In this document: piece by piece, positions 30,184 to 31,860 of the stretch
Numbering within the stretch: the first letter of the stretch is position 1
Layout: each line of letters begins with the position of its first letter
DNA from: a virus
Taxonomy: Duplodnaviria; Heunggongvirae; Uroviricota; Caudoviricetes
Strand: one strand, 5' to 3'
Virus record (IMG/VR): IMGVR_UViG_2778261535_000012
Span: 1-36,784 of that record
Length of the DNA stretch: 36,784 bases
Program-made: the position numbers and the translations under genes
The notes under the pieces: model-generated
The model's database searches: none
What the model was told of the DNA's origin: nothing
The model's input: only the letters and a program-made list of their open reading frames with translations

Positions 30184-30495
30184 ATGATGATTCTGACTCT
30201 GAATGATAAGCGTGAAATATCGCAAATAATCGCAAGTTTTACTGATGAAGATTACGAACGAATCAACAGTGAAGTTGATCGCCTCTGCAAACGTTGCGAC
30301 CCAATAAGCGAAATGCTTCGCTCATATAAACCAGATGAACACACTAAGGACGCTATCGACTGGCTGGAAGATGATGACTGTAACTATCAGAAAAAAGCCG
30401 CTGAATGGTTCTGGGATGCAATAACCGAAAGAGTTAAGGCTGAATATGCCTTCGCAATATTCAAACGCAGACACATTTATGGAGAAGCAGCATGA
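30184..30495 (+). CDS. Hypothetical protein upstream of recT
   Basis: 103-aa acidic ORF; stop overlaps recT start. Confidence 0.5.
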   Translation: MMILTLNDKREISQIIASFTDEDYERINSEVDRLCKRCDPISEMLRSYKPDEHTKDAIDWLEDDDCNYQKKAAEWFWDAITERVKAEYAFAIFKRRHIYGEAA

Positions 30496-31394
30496 GCAAT
30501 ATCGTTGAATTCGTTAAACAGCAGGAGCAGTTATTCTGCGGAGCATTGACTGAACAGACGGTGACATGGGCTAAGGAAAGCCAGTTTGCAATTCAGTATT
30601 TCCAGAAAAATGATTACCTGGCTAAAACGGCACTGGCAAATCCGACCAGCGCACAGAACGCTATCATCAACGTTGCGGCGATCGGCATCACCTTAAACCC
30701 GGCCAGCAAACTGGCTTATCTGGTTCCTCGCGACGGCATGGTGTGCCTTGATATCAGTTACATGGGATTACTTCACCTTGCACAGTCGACAGGATCAATT
30801 AAGTGGGGGCAATGCAAACTGGTGTACTCAAACGACACCTATGAATCAAACGGCCTTGATTCAGCACCAACCCACAAATACAACGCATTTGGTGAGCGAG
30901 GCTCTATTGTTGGTGGTTATTGTACGGTTAAAACAGCAGATGGTGACTACCTCACTGAAGAAATGAGTCTGGCAGAAATTAAAGCTGTGGAAGCAACGAG
31001 CAAGGCAAAGAATGGACCGTGGAAGACATTCTGGGAAGAGATGGCGCGTAAAACAATAGTTAAACGCGCCAGCAAATACTGGCCTAAAGCCCAGCGACTG
31101 GATAATGCCATTCACCTGCTTAACGAAGATGAAGGTATGCATCAGGAACCAGTTATGCCGCACAAATCAGAGGAAGATATCCGCGAAGATGAACGGAAAC
31201 GCCAGCAGGAAATTATGGAAAAAGCACAACTTCTTTGTGATGAAATGGCTCAGGCAGAAAACATGGATGATTTGAAGCGGTATTTTGCAGAAGCATATCG
31301 CCTGACATCTGGAATGAAATTGCAGCAGAACGTACAAGCCATTTACATAGAATGCAAAGCGAAACTGGAGGTTGCCAGTGAGCAAACTGTATGA
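30492..31394 (+). CDS. recT: RecT-family single-strand annealing recombinase
   Basis: ...KAKNGPWKTFWEEMARKTIVKRASKYWP... resembles the RecT conserved core (NGPW..HWEEMAKKT). Confidence 0.8.
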   Translation: MSNIVEFVKQQEQLFCGALTEQTVTWAKESQFAIQYFQKNDYLAKTALANPTSAQNAIINVAAIGITLNPASKLAYLVPRDGMVCLDISYMGLLHLAQSTGSIKWGQCKLVYSNDTYESNGLDSAPTHKYNAFGERGSIVGGYCTVKTADGDYLTEEMSLAEIKAVEATSKAKNGPWKTFWEEMARKTIVKRASKYWPKAQRLDNAIHLLNEDEGMHQEPVMPHKSEEDIREDERKRQQEIMEKAQLLCDEMAQAENMDDLKRYFAEAYRLTSGMKLQQNVQAIYIECKAKLEVASEQTV

Positions 31395-31860
31395 AATTGC
31401 CAATGAATACGCAAAATTGATGGATTCAGATTTAGAACCAGAGATGATTGCTGACACAATAGAAGGCATGGAAGGAGAATTTACCGATAAAATAGAGCAA
31501 CTTCTTTCCGTCATTAAAAATGAATCTGGTTATGCTGAACGCCTCAAGGAAGAGGCAAAGTCACTGAATGAGCGAGCCGCAGTAATTCAAAATAAGATTG
31601 ACAGCATCAAATCATATATAGCGTCATCGCTTGAAATGGTTGGCAAGAAAAATATTCGAGCAGGTATTCACCAGGTAACAATCCGCAAACCGTCAGAAAC
31701 TGTAGAAATCATCGACTCAAGCGCCCTTCCTCCTGAATACGTTGAGTTTGAAACGACAATTAAAGCCGACAAACTGGCAATCAAACACCAACTAAAAGCA
31801 GGAATAAATATCCCCGGCGCTCAACTCAAAGTTGGGAAACCTTCACTTCTTATCAAATAA
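31378..31860 (+). CDS. Hypothetical protein downstream of recT
   Basis: 160 aa from GTG (GGAGG RBS); coiled-coil-like; overlaps the recT 3' end. Confidence 0.5.
   Translation: MSKLYEIANEYAKLMDSDLEPEMIADTIEGMEGEFTDKIEQLLSVIKNESGYAERLKEEAKSLNERAAVIQNKIDSIKSYIASSLEMVGKKNIRAGIHQVTIRKPSETVEIIDSSALPPEYVEFETTIKADKLAIKHQLKAGINIPGAQLKVGKPSLLIK

Follow-up and report, generated by a model that had tools for sequence, protein, structure and literature searches.

A RecT recombination module without an exonuclease in a P22-like lambdoid prophage of Escherichia coli: a candidate Gam-type protein and a Sipho_Gp157 protein on either side of the annealase

Background

Many recombination (Rec) modules of lambdoid phages do without a nuclease gene: the survey of Zheng et al. 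(Genome Res 2025, PMC12315714) counts 84 such cases among 246 modules. The closest described system is the Rec module of phage HK140, which is catalogued in the same survey as a RecT-type annealase (SAP-4) with a MuGam-type anti-RecBCD function, no nuclease and no SSB. In Firmicutes phages, genes of the Sipho_Gp157 family have been found beside erf and sak4, at a site where Mu gam-like genes can stand as well (Steczkiewicz et al. 2021, PMC8093625). Neither the nuclease-free RecT layout nor a Gp157 gene next to it is new. Here we analyse a module of this kind in the IMG/VR virus record IMGVR_UViG_2778261535_000012 (positions 1 to 36,784, in the following called the window). In the window, a recT gene stands between the gene for a 103-amino-acid (aa) acidic protein, PHROG 3486 (in the following f3486), and the gene for a 160-aa protein of the Sipho_Gp157 family (in the following Gp157).

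An earlier note, written from the sequence by eye, had flagged the interval 30184-31860, which starts directly after Kil, as a RecT recombinase that lacks a recognisable partner exonuclease and is flanked by two unassigned proteins, one of which might be a novel partner or an anti-RecBCD factor. The three open reading frames (ORFs) are where the note had placed them, with flanking products of 103 and 160 aa. Its view that a RecT without a nuclease is unusual was overstated in the light of the 84 modules just mentioned; such a RecT is in itself ordinary and already documented for lambdoid phages. The reading that best explains the observed gene identities, slot structure, co-variation and resemblance in fold and sequence is a nuclease-free Rec module in which a Gam-like f3486 would act against RecBCD and RecT would work with Gp157 as a partner that replaces Exo. 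We give this reading a probability of about 60%.

Results

RecT, gene coupling and the missing exonuclease

By its profile matches, the recT product is a member of the RecT family. It hits Pfam PF03837 over residues 31-214 (E-value 2.6e-33, 115.7 bits, cutoff 24), NCBIfam TIGR00616 (76.8 bits, cutoff 52.65) and PHROG 148 (1.5e-91). The core is 57% identical to phi80 RecT over residues 4-217, and the solved structure of LiRecT (7ub2) is matched weakly (E-value 7e-5).

Hidden Markov models (HMMs) for lambda-Exo-like, YqaJ-like and RecE/DUF3799-like exonucleases (exoA, yqaJ and recE) were built from the partners of related RecTs and run against all window ORFs of at least 40 aa on both strands, and no match was obtained at an E-value of 0.1 or below. 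Pfam scans of the ORFs of the early-left operon gave no nuclease family, and YbcO and RusA of the nin region are the only nuclease-type genes in the window. As no window ORF matches the Exo, YqaJ or RecE models, the absence of an exonuclease that had been noticed by eye is confirmed. It was also right that the two flanking proteins do not resemble exonucleases, neither of them being hit by any of the three models.

The stop codon of the f3486 gene overlaps the ATG of recT (ATGA), with GGAG within the last f3486 codons, and the likely start of gp157, a GTG at 31378 that gives the 160 aa of the RefSeq annotation, lies 17 nucleotides before the recT stop, with GGAGG upstream. Because the junctions overlap and GGAG or GGAGG precedes the starts, the three genes look translationally coupled. 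This overlapping unit, together with homologues in many enterobacterial species, argues that the three ORFs are real genes rather than chance occurrences. A 2.4-kb stretch shows 92-94% nucleotide identity (~93%) to phages Kapi1, HK140, mEpX1, Gally and Louie. The module is found at a coverage of at least 80% in 265 of 5,426 complete E. coli genomes, with at least 98% identity to prophages in many strains; in strain QL57EC, RefSeq names two of the products “RecT family recombinase” and “siphovirus Gp157 family protein”.

Two 1.9-kb contigs labelled Micromonospora sp. and Streptomyces sp. (L106/L107) also carry an enterobacterial f3486-recT-gp157 set, with a RecT of 80% aa identity (89% in the core). 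Assembly contamination is the most likely origin of these sequences.

The upstream gene and the gam slot

A word-indexed search with f3486 retrieved close E. coli relatives only. When 1.84 billion cluster representatives (clusters at 50% identity) were searched exhaustively with a profile, 54 matches were obtained at E-values of 0.001 or below, ~40 of them full-length (~100 aa) and with identities down to 24%; a tblastn search of the phage collection with a distant member gave no match. In every context that was read, one with RecT and Gp157 among them, the relatives stand first in a Rec module and abut the next gene. Those with 25-50% identity precede RecT-YqaJ/Exo, RecE-RecT, DUF3799, or a 167-aa protein of no known family followed by YqaJ.

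Phage Dewey carries a true lambda Gam (PF06064, 1.5e-50) ahead of the same recT-gp157 pair, which suggested that the position is a “gam slot”. The slot was tested in 80 loci with this RecT type, which were collected via a RecT alignment with one genome per species and scored with self-built HMMs. The gene abutting the recT start was f3486, lambda Gam or GamL; no locus had more than one of the three. All three occur with both downstream partners. Loci with Gp157 carried f3486 in five cases, lambda Gam in four, GamL in five and none of them in one; for loci with Exo, the corresponding numbers are 5, 5, 7 and 13. Among viral contigs of the close clade, f3486 fills the slot in 79 of 80 and GamL in one.

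Two observations on relatives of f3486 may be added. The 167-aa protein (PHROG 21613, no Pfam match; L007:723-1226 and L008:477-980) sits between the f3486 homologue and the YqaJ exonuclease, in the usual place of the annealase, and may be an unrecognised annealase. In an E. coli variant, the small ORF that precedes f3486 is fused in frame to the last 43 f3486 residues at a shared DDD motif (protein P0025, 69 aa, aligned to 30099-30495). This fusion removes the N-terminal 60% of f3486.

Comparison of f3486 with lambda Gam

The f3486 family has medians of 102 aa, an isoelectric point (pI) of 4.64 and a net charge of -9, compared with 98 aa, 4.69 and -9 for GamS. When f3486 was compared with Gam, BLASTP and hhalign both picked out the same short motif, HTKDAIDWLEDDDCNYQKKAAEWFW versus ASKNAISKAFDDDVEFQERAAEFIR; the hhalign probability was 18-22% over 25 columns. 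With the f3486 HMM run over 2,211 ORFs, eight of nine lambda Gams ranked right after the HMM's own family (E-values 1.7e-5 to 0.19) and above unrelated ORFs. The Gam of Yokenella is colinear with positions 13-87 of the HMM (75 positions), and the best structural match of the predicted f3486 model is GamS (all-helical, ~98 aa).

Several points weigh against a kinship with Gam. At E-values up to 0.1, f3486 has no match to a Pfam family, the Pfam Gam model PF06064 included, and there is no NCBIfam match. A search of the PDB sequences with the f3486 profile did not retrieve Gam (2uuz) at E-values up to 10; with the single sequence it returned nothing meaningful. The protein has no N-terminal MNAYxxxDRIE...W helix motif, which Gam and GamL have in common: hhalign pairs these two over residues 1-43 with a probability of 92.6%, and f3486 shows no similarity there. 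In Gam, this helix is the one that enters the single-stranded DNA (ssDNA) channel of RecB. As the motif is missing, the target or binding mode of f3486 may differ. Finally, Zheng et al. (2025, PMC12315714) did not count the 103-aa gene as a Rec gene.

Taking both sides together, f3486 is probably a very diverged protein of the lambda Gam superfamily, by shared fold or ancestry, and it would then be expected to inhibit RecBCD. The suggestion that a neighbour of recT may be an anti-RecBCD factor is the best reading for the upstream gene, as a putative activity.

Three other candidates were tried and rejected. An identity with phi80 GamL is not significant (hhalign probabilities of 4% and 0.2%), BLASTP finds no similarity to P22 Abc2, and HK75 Gp33 is unrelated to f3486, resembling the small upstream ORF instead.

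Chi sites provide a further line of comparison. According to Zheng et al. (2025, PMC12315714), phages that encode an anti-RecBCD function are mostly Chi-free and those without an inhibitor are Chi-enriched; SEN22-type phages are scored as “no anti-RecBCD” and are yet listed with 0/0 Chi. These phages carry f3486 at 95% identity. Chi (GCTGGTGG) is absent from both strands of the 36.8-kb window. It is also absent from ENT47670, phiEt88 and Midgardsormr38 (47-50 kb; L259, L260 and L261), where base composition predicts 1.2-1.6 sites per genome and f3486 is the only candidate RecBCD inhibitor. The absence of Chi is consistent with a hidden inhibitor, although it is a weak argument when taken alone.

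The downstream gene

The 160-aa product, which had been described as a coiled-coil protein, is recognisable as a full-length member of Sipho_Gp157: it matches PF05565 with an E-value of 1.1e-37 (130 bits, cutoff 28.6) over profile positions 1-162 of 162. PF05565 was also present in all 120 Gp157 homologues among the matches listed. As this is a named family, the novelty that the earlier note had seen in the downstream flank falls away. The protein further matches PHROG 253 (3.5e-54), which bears the PHROGs label “Mu Gam-like end protection”. The note had held its idea against the possibility that a flank is a known exonuclease or a Gam/Abc-type inhibitor. The former was not found; the latter applies to Gp157 at the level of annotation, through the PHROG 253 label and the MuGam class of Zheng et al.

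The AF2 model of Gp157 shows a single long helix (residues 21-87) and, after it, a beta-rich domain. Single-sequence and profile searches of the PDB sequences with Gp157 gave nothing meaningful, and a literature search on Sipho_Gp157 brought up no demonstrated activity reported for the family. A relationship to Mu Gam/Ku (PF07352) was not found: even with an alignment of 26 Mu Gam sequences, hhalign assigned a probability of < 1.1%, with a colinear arrangement and plausible motifs. Mu Gam falls in a different PHROG, and it is near neutral (pI 7.8), whereas Gp157 is acidic (pI 5.3).

Foldseek searches of BFVD with the Gp157 model returned, among the weaker matches, larger phage proteins labelled PD-(D/E)XK, RecB-like or COG5377 exonuclease. 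Judging from these predicted structures, some phages may have a Gp157-like domain joined to a nuclease.

Downstream of recT, Gp157 and Exo exclude each other. Of the 15 Gp157 loci, 14 also have a gene in the gam slot, which in nine is a true Gam or GamL. Because 14 of 15 are furnished in this way, it is unlikely that Gp157 is merely the RecBCD inhibitor of the module.

The C-terminal tail of RecT

The last ~55 residues of RecT fall into two unrelated types, which we call G and E. The G tail (...CDEMAQAENMDDLKRYFAEAYRLTSGMKLQQNVQAIY...) was found in all 14 RecTs that are linked to Gp157, and the E tail (...MDKTWEENLLPVCSQIFRR...AVKALGFLKKKAAA) in 26 of the 29 that are linked to Exo; the remaining three have a further type. 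There was not a single crossover between tail type and downstream partner. In the core, Gp157-linked proteins are 75-96% and Exo-linked proteins 45-83% identical to the window RecT, and four Exo-linked cores are nearer to the window core than one Gp157-linked core is. Since the two ranges overlap, the tail type follows the partner and not core phylogeny alone. In lambda Red, the C-terminal domain of Beta binds Exo. By analogy, we infer that the G-type tail of RecT may bind Gp157.

Accessory genes and prophage context

Two further genes can be added to the three of the earlier note, one at each end of the module (Table 1). The 104-aa product of the downstream gene matches PHROG 323 at 2.2e-20; P22 Abc1 (1.3e-23) and Mu gp9 (5.2e-29) belong to the same PHROG. 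BLASTP gave an E-value of 5e-5 against Mu gp9 and nothing against P22 Abc1, to which the relationship is visible at the PHROG level only. In 69 of 80 viral loci, the gene after gp157 is Abc1-like. No window ORF matched an HMM for Abc2. A DUF2737 gene comes after the Abc1-like gene in SEN22 as well, and after abc2 in HK75. In phage Mu, gp9 lies directly upstream of gam (L011:1483-2326), and a gene of the Abc1 family thus adjoins both Mu Gam and Gp157.

The upstream gene, a small ORF between kil and f3486 that overlaps the f3486 start, is unannotated in RefSeq strain QL57EC. Over its first 21 aa it is 76% identical to HK75 Gp33, with only the N-terminal third in common, and it has a (W/F)SDEEFI motif in common with P22 Arf. 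Small ORFs in the same position are present in loci L013 and L010 and in Midgardsormr38. HK75 Gp33 has been reported to trigger P2 OLD, as RecBCD inhibitors do, and has been suggested as a novel inhibitor or manipulator of RecBCD (preprint, July 2026).

Table 1. Features of the Rec module and of the surrounding prophage (positions in the window)
Feature	Position	Strand	Remarks
Arf/Gp33-like small ORF	30099-30206	+	35 aa from ATG; 40 aa from GTG at 30084
103-aa acidic protein (PHROG 3486, f3486)	30184-30495	+	PHROG of unknown function; gam slot
recT, RecT annealase, 300 aa	30492-31394	+	PF03837, TIGR00616, PHROG 148
RecT annealase core, residues 1 to ~214	30492-31133	+	PF03837 at residues 31-214
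RecT C-terminal tail, residues ~215-300, G type	31134-31394	+	last ~55 aa co-vary with downstream gene
Sipho_Gp157 protein, 160 aa, GTG start	31378-31860	+	PF05565; ORF opens at 31372
Abc1-family protein, 104 aa (PHROG 323)	31872-32186	+	PHROG match
DUF2737 small protein	32203-32367	+	PF10930 at 4.7e-30; conserved distal neighbour of the module
S24/HTH repressor, C2/cI-type	27203-27835	+	early-left operon
Lambda-type N, cIII and Kil		+	early-left operon
DnaB-type helicase, NinB, YbcO, RusA, Q, holin, Rz		-	
Portal, terminase and antirepressor, P22-type			in window

The window is a P22-like lambdoid prophage of E. coli. A 158-aa ORF without a Pfam match (27760-28236, + strand) overlaps the 3' side of the repressor gene and is possibly a lysogen-expressed moron in the position of rexAB or sieB. 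At the right end of the prophage (34807-36784), a TorI/Xis-like gene with no adjoining integrase is followed by a LacY-family sugar permease on the minus strand; this end of the prophage lies next to dsdC in a related strain. A tRNA scan for an attachment site found none in the 36.8-kb window.

Discussion

Proposed mode of action and alternatives

The activities that we infer for the proteins of the module can be combined as follows. The module is made up of five tightly packed genes without a nuclease (Arf/Gp33-like small ORF, 103-aa protein, RecT, Gp157, Abc1-like protein), and the coupled cassette would be expressed from pL after N, cIII and kil, upon infection or induction. A dimer of f3486 could block RecBCD, and perhaps SbcCD, as an acidic mimic of DNA and so protect linear phage DNA. 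Gp157 would partner RecT via the G-type tail, in the place of Exo, and might load or hold RecT at DNA ends or protect the ends without degrading them. RecT would then anneal ssDNA that comes from host nucleases or helicases other than RecBCD, or from replication forks or intermediates, with the Abc1-like and Arf/Gp33-like proteins assisting. The Erf/Abc module of P22 sets a precedent for a module that does without a nuclease of its own. Still, the proposal points to no definite source of ssDNA for RecT, and this counts against it. The most specific version, in which f3486 is a third type of Gam-fold inhibitor and at the same time Gp157 is a non-nucleolytic replacement of Exo that docks on the RecT tail and is not a RecBCD inhibitor, is put forward tentatively and has less than even odds.

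The strongest competitor, which we consider unlikely, assigns the anti-RecBCD function to Gp157 alone, by capping of DNA ends in the manner of Mu Gam/Ku, and makes the 103-aa gene an unrelated accessory that travels along. The annotation of PHROG 253 points this way, the same name having been chosen by the annotators of Gally and Dewey, as do the classification of HK140 as SAP-4 plus MuGam (Zheng et al. 2025, PMC12315714), the alignment of Gp157 with Mu Gam, which is colinear though not significant, and the Abc1-family gene that adjoins both Mu gam and gp157. However, Gp157 occurs together with a true Gam or GamL in nine of 15 species-level loci and in phage Dewey, and the gene with which it alternates is Exo, not Gam. 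The likeness to Mu Gam was not reproduced, and Gp157 is acidic. Both the exclusivity in the gam slot and the putative Gam-like fold of f3486 would be left unexplained.

Less probable again is a role of the 103-aa protein that is not directed at RecBCD. It might be a cofactor of the annealase or of recombination of the P22 Arf kind, arf being the gene immediately upstream of the annealase in P22, or a DNA mimic that counters another host defence system. Many anti-defence factors are typically small, acidic and helical, and the N-terminal helix motif of Gam and GamL is missing from f3486. On the other hand, a separate Arf/Gp33-like ORF is already present upstream of f3486. Relatives of f3486 precede RecE-type nucleases and occur in the SEN22 module, which is scored without an annealase, and f3486 is therefore not specific for RecT. 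Moreover, it never shares its slot with either of two known RecBCD inhibitors, and its best structural match is GamS.

That Gp157 is an unrecognised nuclease and replaces Exo catalytically seems highly improbable to us; it does occupy the Exo slot, and nuclease-labelled proteins appear at ranks 9, 27, 38, 42 and 45 of the Foldseek search, but neither flank of recT is hit by the exonuclease models. We reject the idea that the module has decayed, with its exonuclease lost and its function gone: the window is a prophage and small Rec modules have been called “somewhat suspect” (Zheng et al. 2025, PMC12315714), but the same genes are found together in phages that form plaques (HK140, mEpX1, Kapi1, Gally, Louie and Dewey), and the overlapping ORFs are kept intact in ~15 species as well as in 79 of 80 viral contigs.

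Significance

If the nuclease-free module with a Gam-like f3486 and a RecT-Gp157 pair is the correct reading, the published inventory of RecBCD-inhibiting phages would have to be corrected by a further family of Gam type. Phages that are listed as having no anti-RecBCD function (SEN22, ENT47670, phiEt88 and Midgardsormr38 types) or MuGam only (HK140 type) would then carry a Gam. In the same case, f3486 would be a candidate trigger of defences that guard RecBCD, e.g. retron Ec48 and P2 OLD, and a candidate reagent for recombineering or for the potentiation of quinolones. The cassette of RecT, Gp157 and Gam-like protein would be a compact candidate for recombineering with double-stranded DNA without an exonuclease. 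Docking of Gp157 on the RecT tail, if it takes place, would define a nuclease-free, end-directed annealing pathway, and the pairing of RecT tails with Exo or Gp157, if confirmed, would provide a testable handle on the function of the widespread Sipho_Gp157 family.

Comparison with known systems

The order of genes is like that of lambda Red (gam-bet-exo) and phi80 (gamL-recT-exo), in which a small acidic inhibitor, the annealase and its partner follow cIII and kil. Window f3486 is similar to GamS in size and charge and may be so in its predicted fold; unlike Gam and GamL, it fails the Pfam Gam model and has no N-terminal helix motif. Unlike in lambda and phi80, the third slot is taken by Gp157 and not by a 5'-3' exonuclease, and the RecT tail is of the other type.

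The arf-erf-abc1-abc2 module of P22 is nuclease-free as well, and it also has a small Arf-like ORF upstream, an Abc1-family gene downstream and then a small ORF. This trailing ORF is of the DUF2737 family here and in HK75 and is orf56 in P22. Unlike in P22, the annealase here is RecT and not Erf, there is no Abc2, and a Gam-like protein and Gp157 stand in place of the RecBCD-hijacking Abc2. The Sipho_Gp157 genes beside erf or sak4 in Firmicutes phages (PMC8093625) belong to the same Pfam family, adjoin an annealase gene and occupy a Mu gam-like position. In contrast to these, the gp157 gene of the window lies downstream of RecT, comes from a phage of enterobacteria and is linked to one particular type of RecT tail.

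The Rec module of the HK140 type has the same genes at ~93% nucleotide identity, i.e. a SAP-4 RecT, no nuclease, no SSB and a Gp157 that is counted as MuGam-type, while its catalogue entry (PMC12315714) omits the 103-aa gene, the Abc1-like gene and the small ORF. As far as sequence comparison goes, what appears to be new is the Gam-like assignment of the unannotated f3486, the three-way exclusivity in the gam slot and the alternation of Gp157 and Exo that is tied to the RecT tail. We thus differ from the HK140 classification in that we argue for the 103-aa gene as the Gam-type component and for Gp157 as an alternative to Exo rather than to Gam.

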